From positions 1 to 7,184 of the IMG/VR virus record IMGVR_UViG_2617270940_000007: 7,184 bases of DNA; one strand, written 5' to 3'. Under the pieces are notes generated by a model, which made no database searches, had not been told where the DNA came from, and worked only from the letters and a program-made list of their open reading frames with translations. Numbering within the stretch: position 1 is the first letter of the stretch; every line of letters begins with the position of its first letter. Position numbers and translations under genes: made by a program. Positions 1 to 7,184 of this stretch are shown here, piece after piece. Origin of the DNA: a virus (Duplodnaviria; Heunggongvirae; Uroviricota; Caudoviricetes).

Positions 1-65
1 AACCAATATCACTTAAATAAGTGATAGTCTTAATACTAGTTTTTAGACTAGTCATTGGAGAGCAG

Positions 66-431
66 ATGATTGATGTCTTAGGACCGGAGAAACGCAGACG
101 GCGTACTACACAGGAAAAGATCGCTATTGTTCAGCAGAGTTTTGAACCGGGAATGACGGTCTCCCTTGTTGCCCGGCAACACGGTGTGGCAGCCAGCCAG
201 TTATTTCTCTGGCGCAAGCAATACCAGGAGGGAAGTCTTACTGCTGTGGCCGCAGGAGAGCAGGTCGTTCCTGCCTCTGAACTTGCTGCTGCCATGAAGC
301 AGATTAAAGAACTCCAGCGCCTGCTCGGCAAAAAAACGATGGAAAATGAACTCCTTAAAGAAGCCGTTGAATACGGGCGTGCAAAAAAGTGGATAGCGCA
401 CGCGCCCTTATTGCCCGGGGATGGGGAGTAA
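66..431 (+). CDS. insC: IS2 transposase OrfA (InsC), 121 aa, helix-turn-helix DNA-binding subunit
   Basis: ORF-track protein [40 protein letters not shown]... matches IS2 InsC as I recall it; chosen start is the ATG at 66 rather than the ORF-track upstream extension at 21. Confidence 0.9.
383..389 (+). other. Programmed -1 ribosomal frameshift motif A_AAA_AAG of IS2 (orfA to orfB)
   Basis: Heptamer aaaaaag at 383-389 in the insC frame (A-K-K-W) exactly where the insD frame opens; A6G slippery sites are the established mechanism in IS3-family elements. Confidence 0.75.
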
Positions 432-1294
432 GCTTAGTCAGCCGTTGTCTCCGGGTGTCGCGTGCGCAGTTGCACGTAATTCTCAGACGAACCGATGACT
501 GGAAAGATGGTCGCCGCAGCCGTCACTCAGATGATACGGATGTGCTTCTCCGTATACACCATGTTATCGGAGAGCTGCCCACGTATGGTTATCGTCGGGT
601 ATGGGCGCTGCTTCGCAGACAGGCCGAACTTGATGGTATGCCTGCGATCAATGCCAAACGTGTTTACCGGATCATGCGCCAGAATGCGCTGTTGCTTGAG
701 CGAAAACCCGCTGTACCGCCATCGAAACGGGCACATACTGGCAAAGTGGCCGTGAAAGAAAGCAATCAACGATGGTGCTCTGACGGGTTCGAGTTCCGCT
801 GTGATAACGGAGAAAAACTGCGAGTCACGTTCGCGCTGGACTGCTGTGACCGTGAGGCACTGCACTGGGCAGTCACTACGGGCGGCTTCGACAGTGAAAC
901 AGTACAGGACGTAATGCTGGGAGCGGTGGAACGCCGCTTCGGCAACGAGCTTCCGGCGTCTCCAGTAGAGTGGCTGACGGATAATGGTTCATGCTACCGG
1001 GCTAATGAAACACGGCAGTTTGCCCGGATGTTGGGGCTTGAACCGAAGAACACGGCGGTGCGGAGTCCGGAGAGTAACGGCATAGCAGAGAGCTTCGTGA
1101 AAACGATAAAGCGTGACTACATCAGTATCATGCCTAAACCAGACGGGTTAACGGCAGCAAAGAACCTTGCAGAGGCGTTCGAGCATTATAACGAATGGCA
1201 TCCGCATAGTGCACTGGGTTATCGCTCGCCACGGGAATATCTGCGGCAGCAGGCCAGTAATGGGTTAAGTGATAACAGGTGTCTGGAAATATAG
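389..1294 (+). CDS. insD: IS2 transposase OrfB (InsD), DDE catalytic domain; expressed as InsCD fusion by -1 frameshift
   Basis: 301-aa ORF in the -1 frame relative to insC, overlapping its 3' end; GTG start at 389 lies inside the slippery heptamer; stop TAG at 1292-1294 inside the right inverted repeat. Confidence 0.9.
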
Positions 1295-1305
1295 GGGCAA
1301 ATCCA
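1265..1305. repeat. IS2 right terminal inverted repeat (IRR)
   Basis: Terminal ~41 bp ending ...tggaaatataggggcaaatcca; the matching left repeat lies outside the window, so pairing cannot be verified here. Confidence 0.6.
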
Positions 1306-1679
1306 CCTACTGCCATTACCCACACTTTCATCATTTCACGTAAACGAAGAGAAAAGCGCACCTGCCATTACTCCATACACGGAGAAGAACAATCACCAAA
1401 ACGACGGGAACAACCCAGACGAAAACACAGAGAAGAACCACCTCAAGAAGAACGAAACCACATACGCCGGTAGAGAGTACAAACCACCCATTTCACCCAC
1501 AGGAATAGTCGCCGTATTGAGCGTTATCAGAGAGAAGGTTTATGCCCACATAAGAGAGAAAATTCGAGGGAGGTATAAGTGGGAAGGGGAAGAGGGGTAT
1601 CGCTACTTTTTCCGTATAAATTCAAGCCATAGTTTTCGTCCCCCGTAACGTCCCTATCCACCCCTTCGGTCAGCCTTCG

Positions 1680-1830
1680 GGCCATCCAGGGAAAAGGCCA
1701 TGTCCCTTTTCAGGAACGGGAGCGTCGCCGCAGGGAAAAGGCTGGAGGTTTTCAGGGAAACGGTGGGAATCCCGCTGTACGAACCGGGAAAAGGCTGGCT
1801 GCCGGTCGGGAAACGGGTACATCCCGGTAC
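1680..1830. repeat. GC-rich array of ~6 degenerate direct repeats (core GGGAAA(A/C)GG, ~22-bp period); iteron-like or protein-binding array
   Basis: Units cagggaaaaggc (~1687), caggaacggg (~1711), cagggaaaaggc (~1731), cagggaaacgg (~1753), ccgggaaaaggc (~1784), cgggaaacggg (~1807); no credible ORF across it. Confidence 0.5.
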
Positions 1831-2134
1831 AGAGTGAGGGACGACTGCGGGAGCGGTGCGGGAAATCTTCGGGAGTGCGCCTTACTCTTCACTCGCCTGA
1901 AAATCGCGGGGGAGTGTCATTCCCTCTCGTGCAGCTACTGGACTCCAGTCTGCCAGACCATCATCGGGTCTCAAGCGATTTCAGTAGGTTTTCGGGGAGA
2001 AGAAAATTCTGCCCACCAGCCCCGCGGCGCGCGTAGAGCAGAATATCGTAAATACTGGCTCCCGTGTCGTTCCCGGATATTCACTGCCCAGCCTGGCTTT
2101 CCCGACATAAAATCCTTTTTCGCCTTTGTCTTAT

Positions 2135-2170
2135 TGCGATAATAACACCAATAAGTAAACAACATATTTA
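2135..2170 (+). promoter_or_regulatory. Promoter module A: extended -10 (TGcGATAAT) followed by degenerate AAACAA-N-ATTTA operator-like element
   Basis: ttgcgataataacaccaataagtaaacaacatattta aligns with modules D (4651-4686) and E (5135-5170); lies ~30 bp upstream of RBS gagga and ATG 2202. Confidence 0.4.
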
Positions 2171-2201
2171 GACGTTATAGAAACGAAGTGAGGATGAAGA
2201 G

Positions 2202-2418
2202 ATGATTAAGATGCCTGTGACGGTTGAGGTGTGGGGCGTGGATTCCCTGGCTGAGTGTCTGGATGCAGTGGGGCCGGAGTTGTACCGCAAGTTGTGGTCG
2301 TTCGTCCCGCAGAAGGGGAATCGCCCAAAGGGAAGGATATCTGGCATCTGCTGAGTGAAGATGAAAAGCGGGAGCTGGTGGACGCGGTACACAGCGAGTT
2401 CCCGGAGGACGAAGATTA
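2202..2418 (+). pseudogene. Small ORF (~72 aa if repaired) split by an apparent frameshift near 2331-2336; hypothetical protein
   Basis: RBS gagga 8 nt before ATG 2202; frame 0 gives MIKMPVTVEVWGVDSLAECLDAVGPELYRKLWSFVPQKGNRPKG then stops at 2352-2354; the -1 frame continues KDIWHLLSEDEKRELVDAVHSEFPEDED to TAA ~2416-2418. Both halves look protein-like. Below the ORF-track length cutoff. Confidence 0.3.
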
Positions 2419-2510
2419 AGAGTGAGGTCACCAGCACGGTGGCTTTTGTCGCTATTAACCTCCGGGGCAGCGCAGCACCGTAACGATATACTCTGTGGCC
2501 GTTTTCTTAC

Positions 2511-2548
2511 TGGTATTGTTTACGCAATTCAGAAAACAACATGTTTAA
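2511..2548 (+). promoter_or_regulatory. Promoter module B: extended -10 (TGgTATTGT) plus AAACA-aca-TGTTT palindrome in the 5' UTR
   Basis: ctggtattgtttacgcaattcagaaaacaacatgtttaagga; near-identical in layout to module C (2992-3037); immediately precedes RBS aagga and ATG 2559. Confidence 0.5.
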
Positions 2549-2558
2549 GGATTGCTTT

Positions 2559-2888
2559 ATGTTTGCAAATATCGACATCAACCAAATCAAGAAAATGACT
2601 CAAAAAGAGTTTGACCAGTTTTATGAGTTAGAAGGTTGGTCTTCCACGCTGATCAATTCGCGCTGGGTGCTTGAGCTGATGACTCGTGATGATGCTCCTG
2701 CTTTGATTATTTGCGACATGGGTGAAGATGCTGACTTTATGGATATGAGCGAATTTTGTGTGGACACATACAACCGCAGCCAGAAGTACTACTTCACATG
2801 CGATAGCGAGAATGACGTGATTTCTAAGCTCTATCTTCACCTTGTCCAGCATTGGGACGTGCAGGAATTCCTTGAGTTATTCGCGTAA
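2559..2888 (+). CDS. Hypothetical small acidic protein, 109 aa (cassette gene 1)
   Basis: ORF-track 2541..2888; start moved to ATG 2559 because 2541 lies inside the operator palindrome and 2559 has an aagga RBS at suitable spacing; followed by a hairpin at 2898-2920. No recognisable family. Confidence 0.6.
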   Translation: MFANIDINQIKKMTQKEFDQFYELEGWSSTLINSRWVLELMTRDDAPALIICDMGEDADFMDMSEFCVDTYNRSQKYYFTCDSENDVISKLYLHLVQHWDVQEFLELFA

Positions 2889-2897
2889 GCCCAACCA

Positions 2898-2925
2898 AAG
2901 CCAGCACCGCCTGCTGGCTTAACTT
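2898..2925 (+). terminator. Hairpin (aagccagc-accgcct-gctggctt) with weak U-tract; putative terminator of gene 1
   Basis: 8-bp inverted repeat 10 nt after the stop codon; downstream tract ttaacttctc is only moderately T-rich. Confidence 0.4.
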
Positions 2926-2991
2926 CTCTGTAGCCGTAGGGAAGAACCACCTTTAGATAATTCATGTGCCTGAGCAATATGCTTTGTAGCC

Positions 2992-3037
2992 GTTTTTACA
3001 CTGGTATTATTTACGCCATTGAGAAAACAATTTGTTT
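2992..3037 (+). promoter_or_regulatory. Promoter module C: extended -10 (TGgTATTAT) plus AAACAA-t-TTGTTT palindrome in the 5' UTR
   Basis: gccgtttttacactggtattatttacgccattgagaaaacaatttgtttacgg; homologous to module B over ~50 bp; precedes RBS ggag and ATG 3049. Confidence 0.5.
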
Positions 3038-3048
3038 ACGGAGTAGTG

Positions 3049-3360
3049 ATGAATACTTCATTGGTGCTGGGTCTTGCTGAAGGCCAGGAGAGAAAAGAAA
3101 AACCAACCTTAATGGGGCATCTCACATTGCTGGATATCGTAGCGAATGGGACTTCTATCCGTCTGTTTCGTGAAAAAGCCATTACCTTCGACGCGGGCAA
3201 TTTTACGCGCTATGTGATGGTAGTTCGTCGCCGGCGTGGAAGAGGGTGGATGTCGGTCCAGAAAATGTGGCCAGAGGACCAGCTTGAACTGGCGCTGATG
3301 GAAGCTAACCGTGTCGCCCAACAAGAGATCCAACGAGCGTCTGTTCAGGCGGTAGCTTAA
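3049..3360 (+). CDS. Hypothetical protein, 103 aa (cassette gene 2)
   Basis: ORF-track 3019..3360 begins at a TTG inside the operator; ATG 3049 preceded by ggag is the likelier start; Rho-independent terminator follows. No recognisable family. Confidence 0.55.
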   Translation: MNTSLVLGLAEGQERKEKPTLMGHLTLLDIVANGTSIRLFREKAITFDAGNFTRYVMVVRRRRGRGWMSVQKMWPEDQLELALMEANRVAQQEIQRASVQAVA

Positions 3361-3394
3361 ACATGTGCAAGCAGTAGTTAGTCGAATGTACGAC

Positions 3395-3424
3395 AGCCCC
3401 GCCAATCCTTCGGGGCTTTTTTGT
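3395..3424 (+). terminator. Rho-independent terminator (agccccg - loop - cggggct + TTTTTT)
   Basis: GC-rich 7-bp stem with ccttcgg-type loop followed directly by a six-T run, 35 nt after the gene 2 stop. Confidence 0.7.
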
Positions 3425-3449
3425 ATTGTAAGTACTTACTTATGATAAT
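3421..3449 (+). promoter_or_regulatory. Sigma70-like promoter (TTGTAT - 17 bp - GATAAT) with a perfect 12-bp palindrome GTAAGTACTTAC in the spacer
   Basis: -35 TTGTAT at 3421-3426, -10 GATAAT at 3444-3449, spacer 17 bp; palindrome at 3428-3439 overlaps the spacer (operator-like); AT-rich leader then strong RBS aggag 6 nt before ATG 3482. Confidence 0.5.
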
Positions 3450-3481
3450 AAAATTAAAAATTAAACAATAAGGAGAGTGAA

Positions 3482-3877
3482 ATGACCGTTAAACGCGAAA
3501 ATCTGACCCTGGATATGTATTATGCATCAGAGACGGAAAATGGAGACAAAGTTGCAAAAATTACAATTGTGCTACGCGATAATGCCTCCGGCGAAGAAGT
3601 TCACACCAGTACCTTAACTCGCACCGGCGAGGCGACAAAGGGGAAATATTCGGTGCGTTACCAAAGCATCAGTAATGCTTCTGACCCTTTACTGATAAAA
3701 CTGGAAACTCATTTCCGTGGCGCGGATCAGACGTTGTTTGAAAATTTGATGAAAAAGGTCGATACGGTTTATACATCGAGTTTAAATACCAATAGTACCT
3801 GGATGGGACAACACGGTCTGCGAATAATCTCCGGCGAAAAGATCGACACCATTGTCCCTGAAAGCGTATTCGCTTAA
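3482..3877 (+). CDS. Hypothetical protein, 131 aa (cassette gene 3)
   Basis: Strong RBS aggag at 3471-3475, 6 nt before the ATG; own promoter and own terminator; no recognisable family. Confidence 0.65.
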   Translation: MTVKRENLTLDMYYASETENGDKVAKITIVLRDNASGEEVHTSTLTRTGEATKGKYSVRYQSISNASDPLLIKLETHFRGADQTLFENLMKKVDTVYTSSLNTNSTWMGQHGLRIISGEKIDTIVPESVFA

Positions 3878-3886
3878 TCCTCTTTG

Positions 3887-3916
3887 AATGGCGCGTAAAC
3901 CGCGCCATTTTCTTAT
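3887..3916 (+). terminator. Rho-independent terminator (aatggcgcg-taaac-cgcgccatt + T-rich tract)
   Basis: Perfect 9-bp inverted repeat 10 nt after the gene 3 stop, followed by ttttcttatg. Confidence 0.65.
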
Positions 3917-3921
3917 GTCCG

Positions 3922-3936
3922 ATAACAATTTGTTTT
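3922..3936 (+). promoter_or_regulatory. Operator-like palindrome AACAA-t-TTGTT (copy F of the conserved motif) upstream of gene 4
   Basis: gataacaatttgttttctg matches the core palindrome of modules B-E; the -10 context differs (GATAAC abuts the palindrome), so the promoter assignment is less certain. Confidence 0.35.
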
Positions 3937-3994
3937 CTGCCTTATCTGATTTGTGAAAATGATTTCACTGAAGCAACTTAATAAGGAAACCATC

Positions 3995-4369
3995 ATGGGA
4001 CTTGATATATATATCGAGACGCAGCCTAAAAACGATCTGAATAACGAGGCATCCAGAAAGCAGGTTGCTTACTTCCGTAAGTTCAATGCGCTCGTTGGGT
4101 GGATGGAGCGCAACGTAGGTGAAGTCGAAAATTGTGAGCTTTTAGAATTAACGATGAATGACATTTGTTTTCTGAAGGCTCATTTGATGCACATAAACGA
4201 AAGTAATTGCGAAGAGTACTTGCCTACCCAGGAAGGTTCTTTCTTCGGCAGTCAGGAGTACGATGAAGGTTACTGGCATGATGTGGGGGAGTTGAAAGAG
4301 ATTGTGGAAGATCTGATTAAGAACCACGACTTTCACAATAATAGACTGACCTTCTGCGCCTGGTGGTAA
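3995..4369 (+). CDS. Hypothetical acidic protein, 124 aa (cassette gene 4)
   Basis: ORF-track 3953..4369 starts at GTG with no RBS; ATG 3995 has aagga 7 nt upstream; stop TAA overlaps the start of the next small ORF (taaatATG). Confidence 0.55.
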   Translation: MGLDIYIETQPKNDLNNEASRKQVAYFRKFNALVGWMERNVGEVENCELLELTMNDICFLKAHLMHINESNCEEYLPTQEGSFFGSQEYDEGYWHDVGELKEIVEDLIKNHDFHNNRLTFCAWW

Positions 4370-4371
4370 AT

Positions 4372-4515
4372 ATGGGCGATTTCAAGAAACGCCTGAAGGA
4401 GAGAGCCGAGATGGTCAGAAAGCGAAACGCCTCTTCTGTCATAAGATACGCAAGGCAGTTTAGTCGCAACAACAAATCAGTTGAGGAAAAGATCCTTAGC
4501 GTAATCGGGCGATAA
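4372..4515 (+). CDS. Small basic ORF, 47 aa (or 34 aa from internal ATG 4411 with strong RBS aaggagag); possible coupled partner of gene 4
   Basis: MGDFKKRLKERAEMVRKRNASSVIRYARQFSRNNKSVEEKILSVIGR; start overlaps the upstream stop; internal ATG at 4411 has a strong SD at 7-nt spacing; Lys/Arg-rich; followed by hairpin 4521-4544. Below ORF-track cutoff. Confidence 0.3.
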   Translation: MGDFKKRLKERAEMVRKRNASSVIRYARQFSRNNKSVEEKILSVIGR

Positions 4516-4520
4516 TTATT

Positions 4521-4544
4521 AAGGCCACCAGCATTGGTGGTCTT
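4521..4544. repeat. Hairpin repeat copy 1 (aaggccacca-gcat-tggtggtctt) carrying a Chi octamer on the minus strand
   Basis: 10-bp arms with one G:T position, 4-nt loop; flanked by ttaaatgac; near-identical element at 4992-5015 with inverted loop; ccaccagc (complement of Chi GCTGGTGG) at 4525-4532. Confidence 0.6.
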
Positions 4545-4650
4545 AAATGACTTTTAATAACCGAAGGTTAGTTTGAAACCTGGCTATCAACTTCCAGAAC
4601 CTTTCTTGTGTATTCAGCCTGTATTAACTTCTTTTATGTCTTATCTACAC

Positions 4651-4686
4651 TGCGATAATTACACCAACAAGAAAACAATATGTTTA
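4651..4686 (+). promoter_or_regulatory. Promoter module D: extended -10 (TGcGATAAT) plus AAACA-ata-TGTTT palindrome in the 5' UTR
   Basis: tgcgataattacaccaacaagaaaacaatatgtttacgc; homologous to modules A and E; followed by RBS gagga (4693-4697) and ATG 4705. Confidence 0.5.
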
Positions 4687-4704
4687 CGCAGTGAGGATAT
4701 GCTC

Positions 4705-4986
4705 ATGACTGATTTCACCATTACCCCTAAAGCACAAAATGTATTCCTTGAATCATGGCTGGACTTGCCGGAAACAGAACAGCAAGAAATGGATCATGTG
4801 GAATATGACGAGCAGGTAAGCACGCGATTCTTCCACTTTGAGGGCTGCGTTTACGACATTGCCAACTTCATGCGAGATGACCGCTTCCCTGAATGGCACG
4901 CAAGCTATCCACTAAACGCCTTCGCCATGCTGATGATCCGTGTGGATGATTCAGGGGATACCATCGACATCGGTCTGCTCCACTAA
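4705..4986 (+). CDS. Hypothetical small acidic protein, 93 aa (cassette gene 5)
   Basis: ORF-track 4573..4986 would run through the promoter/operator; ATG 4705 lies 7 nt after gagga (ATG 4699 is too close to the SD). Protein MTDFTITPKAQNVFLESWLDLPETEQQEMDHVEYDEQ... is Asp/Glu-rich. No recognisable family. Confidence 0.6.
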   Translation: MTDFTITPKAQNVFLESWLDLPETEQQEMDHVEYDEQVSTRFFHFEGCVYDIANFMRDDRFPEWHASYPLNAFAMLMIRVDDSGDTIDIGLLH

Positions 4987-4991
4987 AGAGT

Positions 4992-5015
4992 AAGGCCACC
5001 AATGCTGGTGGCCTT
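4992..5015. repeat. Hairpin repeat copy 2 (aaggccacca-atgc-tggtggcctt) carrying a Chi octamer on the plus strand
   Basis: Perfect 10-bp arms; loop atgc is the reverse complement of the copy-1 loop gcat; GCTGGTGG at 5004-5011; followed by ttaaatgac as in copy 1. Confidence 0.6.
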
Positions 5016-5116
5016 AAATGACCATCCTGTTTTCTGCAGGCTAAAAACACCAACCTCTTACCTCCAGGCAACCGACAAACCCACCTGTTCCCGTCCGGCT
5101 ACCGCAACTTTCCACT

Positions 5117-5170
5117 TTGACGCCTTATTCGTACAACGATAATTAACACAAACAAGAAAACAATTTGTTA
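5117..5170 (+). promoter_or_regulatory. Promoter module E: TTGACG -35-like, cGATAAT -10, then AAACAA-t-TTGTTA palindrome in the 5' UTR
   Basis: ttgacgccttattcgtacaacgataattaacacaaacaagaaaacaatttgttatttacg; homologous to modules A and D; RBS aagga (5179-5183) 7 nt before ATG 5191. Confidence 0.5.
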
Positions 5171-5190
5171 TTTACGATAAGGAATTAATC

Positions 5191-5673
5191 ATGAATTTTA
5201 TCGCTACTGTAAACGCACCCGCACATGGCAATATCGCTGTAACGTTCTCTGACATTGAAAAACGAGTACTTGGTGCATGGCGCGACAATGAGACGGTAGA
5301 ACTGTCAGCACAAGAAAAATGCATTATTGCACGCGACATCATTGGCAATCGTCGTTACTCGCGGGTATTTGAGAAAGCATATGTGGTAAATTCTGGATTC
5401 GGAACGTTCGTCTTTCCGGTGCGCTCCGGGCGATTCTGCCAGTCCAAGCTGATTGAGTTCGCTACGCAGATTTCTGTCTGGATTAAAACTCAATCGTCGT
5501 TCAAATTTTCCGACGATGAAGCAGTATCGCAGGGGATGCGGATCGCCAACAATGCAATAAAATGCAAAAACATTACGTATGCCGCTGGCGTTGACACATG
5601 GAAACTGTTTTGCGCTAACTTTATGCTGAATGTATACGCAAGCAACCGCATCCACATCCTTGATGGCGTGTAA
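5191..5673 (+). CDS. Hypothetical protein, 160 aa (cassette gene 6)
   Basis: Good RBS, own promoter module, and a hairpin terminator immediately downstream; no recognisable family. Confidence 0.65.
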   Translation: MNFIATVNAPAHGNIAVTFSDIEKRVLGAWRDNETVELSAQEKCIIARDIIGNRRYSRVFEKAYVVNSGFGTFVFPVRSGRFCQSKLIEFATQISVWIKTQSSFKFSDDEAVSQGMRIANNAIKCKNITYAAGVDTWKLFCANFMLNVYASNRIHILDGV

Positions 5674-5676
5674 CTG

Positions 5677-5706
5677 AGAAGAGGGCCAGAAACGGCCCTT
5701 TCTCTA
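5677..5706 (+). terminator. Rho-independent terminator (agggcc-agaaac-ggccct + tttctct)
   Basis: GC-rich stem 4 nt after the stop codon, followed by a T-rich tract. Confidence 0.6.
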
Positions 5707-5716
5707 TAGCCACCAG

Positions 5717-5900
5717 CTGCCGCAGGGAAATTTTCAGAAACGGCGAGGAACGCATTCATGAGCCGAAGGGAAACGACCATGAAATTTTCTGGAAACGGCG
5801 GGGGGCGCCTTTATGTAGAAAACTGAGCGGGAGAAACCCGGAATCGCGCCAGAAATTGCGTAGCGGCGCTGGGGCAGCGCTGGTGGGGTTTCAGCCCCTG
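5717..5900. repeat. Second GC-rich repeat block (GGGAAA / GAAACGG units), homologous to the 1680-1830 array
   Basis: gccgcagggaaa...ttttcagaaacggcg matches gccgcagggaaaaggctggaggttttcagggaaacggtg in array 1, as if with a ~10-bp deletion; shared gggccatccag motif (1677-1687 and ~5892-5902); Chi octamers at both edges (5710-5717 minus strand, 5879-5886 plus strand). Confidence 0.45.
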
Positions 5901-6088
5901 GGCCATCCAGATAGCTTTCGCTATGTGATTATGTGAATCCGTGGGTAAATCACTGTAAGCGCGTACACGTTGCCCAACGTGGCAATCATATGCGAGCGGA
6001 TACAAAACAACACAAAGAGCCGATCCGCGCCGACAAATAAATGCGGATCACATAGCAAGACTAAAAGCCAATGATTAACCATACTCTA

Positions 6089-6109
6089 TAGCGCAATATA
6101 ACGCGTTTT
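6089..6109. repeat. Hairpin (taacgcg-ttttaag-cgcgtta)
   Basis: Perfect 7-bp inverted repeat in an AT-rich intergenic region; member of a local family of GCGC-stem hairpins. Confidence 0.4.
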
Positions 6110-6216
6110 AAGCGCGTTAATGTGTTAAGTAATGGGTATGTACTGACAAGGATATAAAAGCGCGTCTATGGCGTTATTTTGGTGCTTATTTTTATGTTGT
6201 TGGAGCGAGTTAAAGA

Positions 6217-6246
6217 CAATAAAAAACGCGCCAATGATGGCGCGTT
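6217..6246 (-). terminator. Hairpin (aacgcgcc-aatgat-ggcgcgtt) followed by a T-run on the minus strand; second of two tandem minus-strand terminators
   Basis: Perfect 8-bp stem; on the minus strand the stem is followed directly by TTTTTT (plus-strand aaaaaa at 6221-6226). Confidence 0.5.
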
Positions 6247-6265
6247 ATGGTGGGAGTATTGGAAA

Positions 6266-6290
6266 CGAAAAAAGCGCCCATAGTGGGCGC
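6266..6290 (-). terminator. Rho-independent terminator of the 76-aa minus-strand gene (gcgccca-tag-tgggcgc + TTTTTT)
   Basis: Perfect 7-bp stem 6274-6290, followed on the minus strand by six T; lies 7 nt past the stop codon (6297-6299) of the 6297..6527 gene; the same 17-bp palindrome recurs at 6547-6563. Confidence 0.7.
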
Positions 6291-6296
6291 TCGATT

Positions 6297-6527
6297 TTAT
6301 TTGTGTAAACTAATTTTGAATCCCATTTCTACAAACGCTTTTAACATTAAAAATATATCAGCGTCATTCACGTCTGCTTTTTTTCGCTCCTGGTCGTTCA
6401 ATAAGTCAATTTTGCGCGTTGTTTCATTTATAAACTCGACTGCGCGCCCAGCGATCCCAGCGATCCCAGCGATGCGATTAACATAATATTCATTATGGAC
6501 GTTAACGCCAGCGATAAGAACAAACAT
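6297..6527 (-). CDS. Hypothetical small protein, 76 aa, containing an in-frame (IAG)x3 tandem repeat
   Basis: Minus-strand ORF with strong SD aaggag 7 nt before the ATG; bracketed by two identical 17-bp hairpins (6274-6290 and 6547-6563); terminator downstream. No recognisable family. Confidence 0.55.
   Translation of the reverse strand: MFVLIAGVNVHNEYYVNRIAGIAGIAGRAVEFINETTRKIDLLNDQERKKADVNDADIFLMLKAFVEMGFKISLHK
6447..6473. repeat. Perfect 9-bp tandem repeat (cccagcgat)x3 inside the 76-aa gene
   Basis: Three head-to-tail copies; on the coding (minus) strand atcgctggg x3 encodes Ile-Ala-Gly x3, so copy-number change would preserve frame. Confidence 0.8.
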
Positions 6528-6546
6528 GATTAAGCTCCTTAAAACT

Positions 6547-6563
6547 AGCGCCCATAGTGGGCG
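6547..6563. repeat. Second copy of the 17-bp palindrome gcgcccatagtgggcgc, between the two minus-strand genes
   Basis: Identical to 6274-6290; sits between the stop of the upstream minus-strand fragment (6578) and the SD/ATG (6527) of the 76-aa gene. Confidence 0.6.
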
Positions 6564-6577
6564 CTATATCCATCTAA

Positions 6578-6837
6578 TTACGCTTTGAAAGCATCAGCCA
6601 GATAGTTATAAAAATCATTTTTAACGAAGCGATATTGCTGTGATCCGTTTTTCGCTGCACCCATTCCTTTGATTTTTTCGACCAGTCCCAGACGTTCGCA
6701 AAGATTGATAAGCTGGTTGGCTTGAGTGTATCCTGCGTCTAATTTTATTTCGTTGGCTTTTTTCGCTTCATTCATTAAATCGAAAACAGCGCCATTGGTG
6801 AACGTGTCGATCTCGTCGTTAATCATATCGATTAATG
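6578..6837 (-). pseudogene. 3' fragment of a gene truncated at its 5' end by IS1 insertion; hypothetical protein, tentatively phage antirepressor-like C-terminal region
   Basis: Minus-strand frame stays open from the ORF-track Met (6826) up to the IS1 boundary (6837) with no stop, so the ORF runs into the IS; the antirepressor resemblance is an impression from memory only. Confidence 0.45.
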
Positions 6838-6892
6838 GGTGATGCTGCCAACTTACTGATTTAGTGTATGATGGTGTTTTTGAGGTGCTCCA

Positions 6893-7168
6893 GTGGCTTC
6901 TGTTTCTATCAGCTGTCCCTCCTGTTCAGCTACTGACGGGGTGGTGCGTAACGGCAAAAGCACTGCCGGACATCAGCGCTATCTCTGCTCTCATTGCCGT
7001 AAAACATGGCAACTACAGTTCACTTACACCGCCTCTCAGCCCGGTACGCACCAGAAAATCATTGATATGGCCATGAATGGCGTTGGATGCCGGGCAACTG
7101 CCCGCATTATGGGCGTTGGCCTCAACACGATTTTACGTCACTTAAAAAACTCAGGCCGCAGTCGGTAA
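6893..7168 (+). CDS. insA: IS1 InsA (transposition repressor / N-terminal part of the InsAB' transposase), 91 aa
   Basis: [91 protein letters not shown]; GTG start at 6893; zinc-finger-like CxxC...CxxC motif. Confidence 0.92.
7144..7150 (+). other. IS1 A6C -1 frameshift motif (insA to insB', gives InsAB' transposase)
   Basis: aaaaaac near the 3' end of insA, the established IS1 frameshift position; the insB' frame continues beyond the window. Confidence 0.7.
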
Positions 7169-7184
7169 CCTCGCGCATACAACC

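Follow-up and report, generated by a model that had tools for sequence, protein, structure and literature searches.

Phage P1 is a plasmid-prophage in which one short operator is scattered genome-wide, and more than a dozen annotated C1-controlled operators overlap the -35, -10 or +1 elements of many sigma-70 promoters, one of them at the regulator region itself. At the late promoters of P1, the phage activator Lpa replaces the -35 contact. Dispersed palindromic plasmid sites are the hallmark of KorB in RK2, and the PeSL cassettes of T4-type phages, like morons, are small orphan genes, each served by a conserved promoter and by a hairpin or terminator, in arrays of variable make-up. Here we compare these systems with a locus in 7,184 nucleotides of viral DNA (Caudoviricetes; IMG/VR record IMGVR_UViG_2617270940_000007, positions 1 to 7,184), hereafter the window, where a 12-bp palindrome, GTAAGTACTTAC, precedes a gene for a 131-aa protein (gene 3482-3877). 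A first-pass annotation made from the letters alone had placed this palindrome in the spacer of a TTGTAT-17-GATAAT promoter and proposed that a repressor or activator acting there regulates the gene separately from its neighbours. Our analysis indicates that the palindrome is very probably a member of a predicted protein-binding family dispersed around SSU5-like phage-plasmids. It also supports, at the level of sequence comparison, a reading in which gene 3482-3877 would be wired into a genome-wide control circuit distinct from that of its neighbours.

Bases 1306-6837 of the window are 97-99.9% identical to E. coli phage-plasmids of the SSU5 supergroup. The closest match to this segment is pYUXYEH3934-1, pTB212 matches at 98.7%, and more remote similarity is seen to phages, namely Cyrano and PhiR41_1 (about 91-92%) and SSU5 (82%). 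When the whole of pTB212 (110,417 bp) was searched for the palindrome core, with first-order Markov simulations as the null, 3, 11 and 30 sites were found at 0, 1 and 2 mismatches, compared with 0, 0 and 2.6 expected. The 12-mer therefore has many matches on a related replicon, the search that the first-pass annotation had proposed. Alignment of 26 sites gave the dyad consensus ATAGGTAAGTACTTACCTAT with weaker ATA/TAT extensions, and the core belongs to a 20-bp dyad that perhaps reaches 26 bp. On the PLSDB gene table, which is incomplete and annotates 82.5% of pTB212 as coding, 24 of the 26 non-overlapping sites fall outside annotated coding sequences (CDS; p=1.6e-16). Dyads stand 5' of structural genes (portal, scaffold-like, Ig-like head protein, major tail, minor tail L and tail fibre) and of genes for holin, dam, thymidylate synthase, SbcD, a CobS-like ATPase and a gp32-like single-stranded DNA-binding protein, and the genes they precede span every lytic module on pTB212. 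One further dyad lies between a divergent ParB-like gene and a helicase operon (pTB212 68913).

The same sites recur in relatives. Phage SSU5 has 25 of them at orthologous positions, and over 24 pTB212/SSU5 site pairs the 20-mer is 92% identical while the ±66-bp flanks are 84% identical, so that the dyad can appear as a conserved island in divergent flanks (for example 19/20 versus 78/132). In IMG/VR, nearly all contigs with the 16-mer AGGTAAGTACTTACCT align to pTB212 and contain several sites at each locus, and beyond SSU5-like elements that collection gave single chance matches only. No paper holding the 12-mer was found in the searchable literature.

Within the window itself the palindrome does not stand out. 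GTAAGTACTTAC has a sole exact copy there, and perfect 12-bp palindromes number two (at 3428 and 4004) where shuffled sequences give 1.7. These counts, together with a left half that is constrained by the -35 hexamer, are what would be expected if the palindrome had arisen by chance in an ordinary constitutive promoter. That explanation is very improbable given three exact 12-mers and about 30 near-copies on a 110-kb replicon (0 and 2.6 expected), a right half and TTAT flank that fit the family consensus, and conservation of bases 3432-3443 across genera. The regulatory reading is thus supported because of evidence from beyond the window, namely dyad copies that are dispersed, mostly intergenic and conserved.

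A self-complementary sequence could also act as a nucleic-acid hairpin, whether as a DNA cruciform or in RNA processing or stability, and several copies would be transcribed inside operons, for instance after the capsid gene and where terL meets portal. However, only 8 of 83 symmetric pairs that deviate from the consensus remain complementary, meaning that the arms do not co-vary, and the palindrome folds as a DNA hairpin of just -1.4 kcal/mol (z=-1.8). There is no Rfam match, and at this locus the predicted transcription start lies downstream of the palindrome, which together leave the hairpin scarcely credible. Base pairing is not what has been selected, and a dimeric DNA-binding protein is therefore the natural reader of the dyad. 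The sites combine dyad symmetry with half-sites that vary independently, as operators of a dimeric repressor do.

To place the dyad at gene 3482-3877 we aligned the intergenic region among E. coli, Enterobacter, Cronobacter, Salmonella and Klebsiella plasmids (7 aligned relatives) and added 13 different orthologous variants, drawn from viral contigs, SSU5 and Cyrano; the loose pattern scan behind the variant collection gave mostly chance matches and was filtered on terminator context. Conservation peaks at 3379-3453, with 0.84-0.97 identity to the window across 6 relatives compared to 0.46-0.73 in the flanking CDS. Klebsiella is identical to the window over 3409-3438 (identity 1.00), and its blastn match is a 90-bp intergenic block only, 87-89% identical. 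The conserved peak includes an intrinsic terminator of the upstream gene, in which RNA folding pairs 3395-3401 with 3411-3417. Its stem and T-run are invariant in 7 relatives and its loop is variable; a simple terminator scan had overlooked it, the loop being longer than 8 nt.

Directly 3' of this terminator, the comparison supports a conserved predicted promoter of gene 3482-3877's own. TTGTAA-17-TAAAAT matches the sigma-70 consensus TTGACA/TATAAT at 9 of 12 positions, as a promoter of this class should, and it is the best promoter in a position weight matrix (PWM) scan (10.5 bits, random mean 4.4). In relatives its -10 reads TAGAAT, TAATAT, TAGTAT, TATATT or TATGAT, and a TAnnAT or TAnnnT stands at the same offset, 10-15 nt past the core, in every orthologous variant. 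The letters originally reported are all present (TTGTAT at 3421-3426, a 17-bp spacer, GATAAT at 3444-3449 and GTAAGTACTTAC at 3428-3439), but as a pair these hexamers are not conserved: the GATAAT position is GGCGAT in Klebsiella and CGGTAT, GTCTAT or GACAAT elsewhere, and TTGTAT reads CTGTAT in one Salmonella plasmid. Because TTGTAA and TAnnAT are always kept and the GATAAT position is not, the true register of the promoter is shifted 5 bp downstream. TTGTAT/GATAAT (3421-3449, plus strand) is a possible minor or lineage-specific second promoter. Promoter-like hexamer pairs are not enriched in the window as a whole (5 found, 9.4 expected).

The new register also changes where the palindrome lies. 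Instead of sitting wholly inside the spacer it overlaps the -35 hexamer plus the first 8 bp of the spacer, and spacer bases 3432-3443 are conserved across genera. Further invariant features are TGTATTGTAAGT, TAC at 3437-3439 and the Shine-Dalgarno sequence. By sigma-70 geometry transcription would start near 3460, giving a predicted leader of ~21 nt. The AT-rich leader described earlier is real as a run at 3451-3470, but it is not conserved and is partly -10 and discriminator sequence. Overall, it is likely that the dyad overlaps a working promoter at gene 3482-3877. The coordinates of these and other features are collected in the table.

Table. Coordinates of features in the window and, where indicated, on pTB212.
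Feature	Position	Strand	Basis and remarks
Insertion sequence IS2	1-1305		Left border of the 5.5-kb SSU5-like segment
AAACAA-N-TTGTTT copies	2532-2546, 3921-3935, 4671-4685, 5156-5170		Repeat families; weak copy at 2155-2169
Neighbour-type module GAAAACAATTTGTTT	3023-3037	+	Repeat family
Conserved 3' untranslated block of gene 3049-3360	3361-3394	+	Invariant CATGTGCAA, TTAGTCGA, TACGACAGCCCCG
Intrinsic terminator of upstream gene	3395-3422	+	7-bp stem AGCCCCG/CGGGGCT, 9-nt loop, T6
Operator-like dyad TATTGTAAGTACTTACTTAT	3424-3443	.	Core GTAAGTACTTAC; family consensus ATAGGTAAGTACTTACCTAT
Predicted -35 TTGTAA	3426-3431	+	Promoter scan; invariant in 7 relatives and 13 variants
Predicted -10 TAAAAT	3449-3454	+	Promoter scan; 17 bp from TTGTAA
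Predicted transcription start	3460-3462	+	6-8 nt past -10; standard sigma-70 geometry
Shine-Dalgarno GGAG	3472-3475	+	6 nt 5' of ATG; invariant in alignment
Gene for 131-aa protein, phrog_2473	3482-3877	+	Open reading frame (ORF) list; PHROG E=7.5e-54
Intrinsic terminator 3' of gene	3886-3910	+	Scan: 10-bp stem, 6 GC pairs, then T-rich tail
47-aa ORF	4372-4515	+	Directly 3' of gene 3995-4369; CYRAN_109 by position and size
Strong hairpin AAGGCCACCA-nnnn-TGGTGGCCTT	4519-4546 and 4991-5017		Both sides of gene 4705-4986
Weak second core match GTATGTACTGAC	6136-6147	.	2 mismatches; 20-mer context 7 mismatches
phrog_1513 gene, IS1-truncated	6578-6826	-	Last 82 codons left
Insertion sequence IS1	6838-7184 (from 6838 on)		Right border of the SSU5-like segment
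FljA-family protein, 175 aa	pTB212 71301-71828		PF03614 E=1.5e-95, 'repressor of phase-1 flagellin'

A conserved terminator-promoter linker could alternatively be a recombination joint at which small genes are swapped, as in T4-like cassettes, with the palindrome non-regulatory here. The conserved block does comprise terminator, -35 and spacer between two strongly diverged genes, in a region that is an array of orphan genes with promoter modules and hairpins whose content varies between relatives. This model leaves unexplained why the same 20-mer occurs at about 28 unrelated intergenic positions, including a conserved structural operon, and the gene that follows the joint is orthologous in all relatives and not swapped; we regard it as a remote prospect. 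The conserved 3' block just upstream (3361-3394) was also considered as an RNA family or small RNA and rejected, since Rfam returned no family for it and its fold was not significantly better than shuffles (z=-1.7); it holds a 4-bp hairpin, GTCG (3381-3384) with CGAC (3391-3394), by RNA folding.

Our best reading of the locus, to which we give somewhat better than even chances, is that the dyad is an operator for a phage-encoded dimeric regulator, most likely a repressor, that would silence gene 3482-3877 in lysogeny. Transcription of the upstream gene would end at terminator 3395-3422, a host sigma-70-type promoter would follow at once, and the leader with its GGAG, the gene and a second terminator would complete a transcription unit of its own. 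The phage-encoded dimeric DNA-binding regulator would bind dyads repeated about 25-30 times around the phage-plasmid genome, 5' of lytic-cycle genes. At gene 3482-3877 the bound regulator could shut out RNA polymerase, because the dyad covers the -35 hexamer and the upstream part of the spacer. On this model the plasmid (lysogenic) state would keep the gene silent, and its release would come along with that of the rest of the dyad regulon. The first-pass proposal of separate regulation survives in that the gene appears to have its own promoter, different from those of its neighbours, but the site is not private to it and belongs instead to what looks like a genome-wide regulon.

The arrangement of promoters around the dyads bears on how such a regulator would act. 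A PWM scan for sigma-70 promoters was run over ±45 bp around 22 dyad sites, with random genomic positions as the control. The mean promoter score near dyads was 8.5 bits on the gene strand, compared to 4.4±2.0 for random positions and 6.4 on the antisense strand; 17 sites exceeded the random 90th percentile, and sense exceeded antisense at 17/22 (Wilcoxon p=0.003). About nine promoters have the dyad in or near the spacer and -35, their -10 beginning 8 to 22 bp past the core start, and about seven have it just 3' of the -10, over +1 (offset -7 to -21). This +1-overlap arrangement accounts for dyads that precede a start codon by only 17-22 nt, namely those of dam, thyA and one hypothetical gene. 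Three dyads fill a 17-bp spacer, two of them in the near-consensus promoters TTGAAA-17-TATGAT and TTGAAA-17-TATCAT and the third in a weaker one, TTAAAA/TATGCA, which was not selected by the score scan. The dyads therefore behave in silico as operators do, overlapping core promoter elements at variable positions, and the -10 offset across the family ranges from -21 to +27, with +14 to +22 for dyads over the spacer and -35. Since activator boxes of fixed position do not vary in this way, the geometry favours a repressor, and we lean modestly towards repression on these sequence grounds.

The competing possibility is that the dyad is an activator box of middle or late promoters, like the P1 Lpa -22 box, which would switch the gene on with the lytic genes. 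P1 late promoters have the form acAAGT(G/T)ACTT-4 nt-TAnnAT in the P1 annotation, and the core has the same half-sites, AAGT/ACTT. In addition, most dyads are without a TTG-type -35 at the right distance, a TAT follows one base past the core (two in a few copies), dyads stand 5' of structural and lysis genes, and P1 is also a phage-plasmid. Several observations do not fit. The box here is 8 bp and misses the central base, and the best -10 lies at varying distances from it. T at position 6 of the -10 is no commoner towards the gene than away from it. Four dyads lie 17-22 nt before starts, upstream of the Shine-Dalgarno sequence, where a box-fixed -10 would make the leader too short, and the target and three other sites have a good -35 at which an activator is not needed. 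tblastn gave no Lpa homologue on pTB212 (best E=0.31); PF25716/phrog_1704 were identified for Lpa only, and no profile search of all ORFs was made. Activation is thus unlikely. In the first-pass annotation the palindrome was called a classic repressor or activator site; through its relatives it does behave as a predicted protein-binding site, with a repressor the likelier binder of the two.

Published expression data come from one lysogen, E. coli LF82 carrying Cyrano, analysed by gene-level RNA sequencing (RNA-seq; PMC9928086 Table S1). The genes behind the spacer-filling promoters (CYRAN_4, 48 and 56) are at the floor of this LF82 lysogen transcriptome (PMC9928086 Table S1). CYRAN_107, the orthologue of gene 3482-3877, had log2 values of 3.98/4.18 in lysogeny broth (LB), 1.7x background and under the study's 5x cutoff, and in macrophages it reached 7.31/7.13 while its neighbours were at 5.64/6.12 and 5.20/5.53 (PMC9928086). 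It exceeded both neighbours in 3/5 conditions (PMC9928086). These values are weakly consistent with independent, inducible transcription.

A number of observations weigh against silencing by promoter occlusion as we have set it out. The RNA-seq differences, at gene level, are small, and they were measured on another plasmid. No promoter-like sequence stands near the dyad of the terL-portal junction (score 3.2), and some dyads sit between a stop codon and a terminator; promoter occlusion is therefore not the whole story. The dyad flanks resemble -10 hexamers on both sides, and the motif itself contributes some of the promoter-score enrichment. At gene 3482-3877, the right arm (TTAT flank) and core of the dyad fit the family consensus, but the left arm, TATT, which overlaps TTGTAA, is off consensus at 4/4 flank positions, and no family member has a poorer left arm. 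Only the lineage of the window and Klebsiella have a perfect palindrome, and in other relatives the right half has 1-2 uncompensated changes (ACATAC, GTTTAC, GCTTAC, AGTTAC). Because the left arm is so poor and the right half varies without compensation, this copy could be weak, or could be kept mainly as the -35. Finally, the regulator may be absent from the replicon of the window, the segment being cut out by IS2 and IS1. Neither the plasmid collection nor that of complete E. coli genomes has a record with both IS junctions, and for this reason the replicon that carries the window may be a rearranged or degraded phage-plasmid.

Neighbouring genes appear to be under other control. As first noted, gene 3482-3877 has no full AAACAA-N-TTGTTT module 5' of it and the neighbouring genes have one. 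The modules at 2532, 3023, 4671 and 5156 lie 11-12 nt past an extended -10 (TGnGATAAT or TGGTATTAT) and 11-20 nt before start codons, in the first bases of the 5' untranslated region, while the copy at 3921 is instead over the -35 region of a TGTGAAAAT promoter. At up to one mismatch, AAACAA-N-TTGTTT has 17 sites on pTB212 (0.6 expected) and 20 in SSU5, and beyond the window it stands 5' of parA, dnaB, cobT-like, terS and Rha-like genes. Because the neighbouring cassette genes carry AAACAA-N-TTGTTT just 3' of extended -10 promoters, they would answer to a different regulator through this sequence. The module could serve as an operator in DNA or, for an FljA-family protein, in mRNA.

Several proteins are candidates for the binder of the dyads. 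The regulators recognisable in both the pTB212 and SSU5 genomes are an FljA-family protein, a Rha/Ant-like protein, the phrog_1513 protein, whose two versions are 96% identical, and a HicB-like antitoxin, which was assigned by position and size against the Cyrano annotation. A PHROG/Pfam scan of 20 small candidates found as DNA-binding types only the FljA family, a helix-turn-helix (HTH) protein of the CYRAN_45 type, Rha/Ant and the HicB-like protein. The FljA-family protein is a core gene product of SSU5-like phage-plasmids, and its pTB212 and SSU5 versions share 97.7% identity. Its gene shares a leftward operon with that of a UvsW-like helicase; the LF82 lysogen transcribes this operon, the FljA-like gene being at log2 about 7-8 in growing cells. 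Because this operon is lysogen-expressed and has a dyad in its own promoter region, our best guess is that the binder is a product of the helicase/FljA-family-regulator operon. FljA relatives have been reported to block translation of fliC mRNA (PMC2652032). Neither the FljA-like nor the phrog_1513 protein had sequence relatives in the PDB. Both motifs are unchanged in all FljA-like identity classes across 39 viral loci, a pattern that gives no assignment.

The integrase-adjacent HTH repressor of the CYRAN_45 type was tried as the binder and rejected, as SSU5 keeps its 25 sites without that gene. Its own predicted promoter, TTTACA-16-TAATAT, carries a dyad copy, GTAAGCACTTAC, at +1. This region (15469-15724 in a segment of pTB212) belongs, in the E. 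coli members, to an insertion that SSU5 does not have, and a tRNA-Asn of SSU5 is located near there. The insertion contains the integrase, the HTH repressor, which is expressed in LF82 lysogeny, and a small divergent gene, all absent from SSU5.

Binding by a ParB-family protein, as at the OB sites of RK2 KorB or the centromere repeats of N15, would be another way to read dispersed dyads, with transcription affected by spreading or sliding. Such a distribution of palindromic sites is what KorB is known for, two proteins with ParB N-terminal domains are encoded beside the packaging genes, and the dyad at pTB212 68913 falls where the first ParB-like gene and the helicase operon diverge. However, the dyad is unlike known parS or OB sites, its roughly 28 copies are many more than in known systems, and the ParB-like genes, CYRAN_119-120, are silent in the LF82 lysogen (log2 2.3-3.5), when silencing would be needed. 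We judge this model to be quite improbable.

Gene 3482-3877 itself is orthologous to CYRAN_107 and SSU5_114, and an orthologue was found in E. coli, Salmonella, Enterobacter, Cronobacter and Klebsiella relatives (39% protein identity in Klebsiella). The 131-aa protein had no Pfam match and no match to a PADLOC defence system, and only 14 homologues were found among 5.8 billion proteins; judging by their names and contig sizes, these are apparently from SSU5-like plasmids. Its AlphaFold model (predicted local distance difference test, pLDDT, 83) shows a four-strand sheet with helices, and a search with the model returned no meaningful structural neighbours. GC content is 0.44, with neighbours at 0.43-0.51, so its composition is typical. 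Terminator, promoter, gene and second terminator form the autonomous unit expected of a moron, but neither lysogen expression above the study's cutoff, nor odd composition, nor patchy presence was found. For this gene the outcome is modest: an orphan accessory protein tied to a predicted lytic-side regulon, unlike its neighbours.

The rest of the segment is an array of small same-strand genes, all in PHROGs of unknown function, whose content differs between relatives; the members are small orphan genes, and every one of them is accompanied by a conserved promoter module and a hairpin. The hairpin copies on either side of gene 4705-4986 (27 nt, 96% complementary) are a repeated terminator module bounding one cassette. 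CYRAN_109, which corresponds to the 47-aa ORF of the table, was 6x above background in the LF82 lysogen when its neighbours were not. G+C-rich non-coding stretches with short repeats border the array (window 1620-1900 and 5700-5910), and no gene is annotated there in relatives. They contain CAGGGAAAAGGC three times, spaced 44-53 bp, a 38-nt repeat at 5723 and 5778, and a 20-mer common to 1670 and 5891. The weak second core match in the window is probably non-functional, judging from its mismatches.

It is tempting, although this goes further than we would wager on, to propose that SSU5-like phage-plasmids are governed by two previously undescribed genome-wide operator sets, ATAGGTAAGTACTTACCTAT (about 28 sites) and AAACAA-N-TTGTTT (about 17-20). 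If true, a conserved regulator acting through the ATAGGTAAGTACTTACCTAT set would hold down almost all lytic transcription units, the early as well as the late ones, each at its own promoter, and the master switch would be built like the P1 C1 network while being unrelated to it in protein and DNA sequence. The regulator might then be an FljA-family protein, whose only characterised relatives act on mRNA. SSU5-like elements are widespread in Escherichia, Klebsiella, Salmonella and Enterobacter, forming a large, clinically common group that carries resistance genes. The switch from quiescence to the lytic cycle in SSU5/pSLy3/pKpn-type phage-plasmids is undescribed in the searchable literature, where no paper on their regulation was found by title or abstract. 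The map of about 28 sites is a handle for finding the regulator, and it also helps to predict which accessory genes are silent in carriage and supports the engineering or curing of these plasmids.

Set beside the described systems, gene 3482-3877 shares with T4-type PeSL cassettes and morons its place among small orphan genes with a conserved promoter and a hairpin or terminator in a variable array. It differs in being at only 1.7x background in the LF82 lysogen, in its typical GC content, and in being orthologous across genera and so not a recent moron insertion. KorB of RK2 offers a palindromic operator spread around a plasmid at variable distances from promoters, with global co-ordinate repression; its OB sequence is TTTAGCSGCTAAA, however, and RK2 has 12 sites where there are about 28 here.

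P1 provides the remaining two comparisons. The half-sites AAGT/ACTT are those of P1 late promoters, where they are centred ~20 bp upstream of the start at morphogenesis and lysis genes of another enterobacterial phage-plasmid. Here, though, the core AAGTACTT is 8 bp, compared to the 9-bp AAGTnACTT, and lies within a much longer dyad. The dyads also differ from that class in having no fixed 4-bp spacing to the -10 and no accompanying Lpa homologue, and the promoter of gene 3482-3877 has its own conserved -35. The likeness to the P1 -22 box may reflect convergence or a very distant relationship of the regulators. With the P1 C1 network the parallel lies in architecture, as both are plasmid-prophages with one short operator scattered genome-wide over the core elements of many sigma-70 promoters and present at a regulator region. 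The P1 operators are asymmetric 17-mers of unrelated sequence, unlike the 20-bp dyad, and tblastn found no homologue of C1 on pTB212 or SSU5 (best E=0.75), so that it is the dispersed architecture alone that is shared, and not the operator. The dyads, moreover, also precede late structural genes, which P1 controls indirectly through Lpa.

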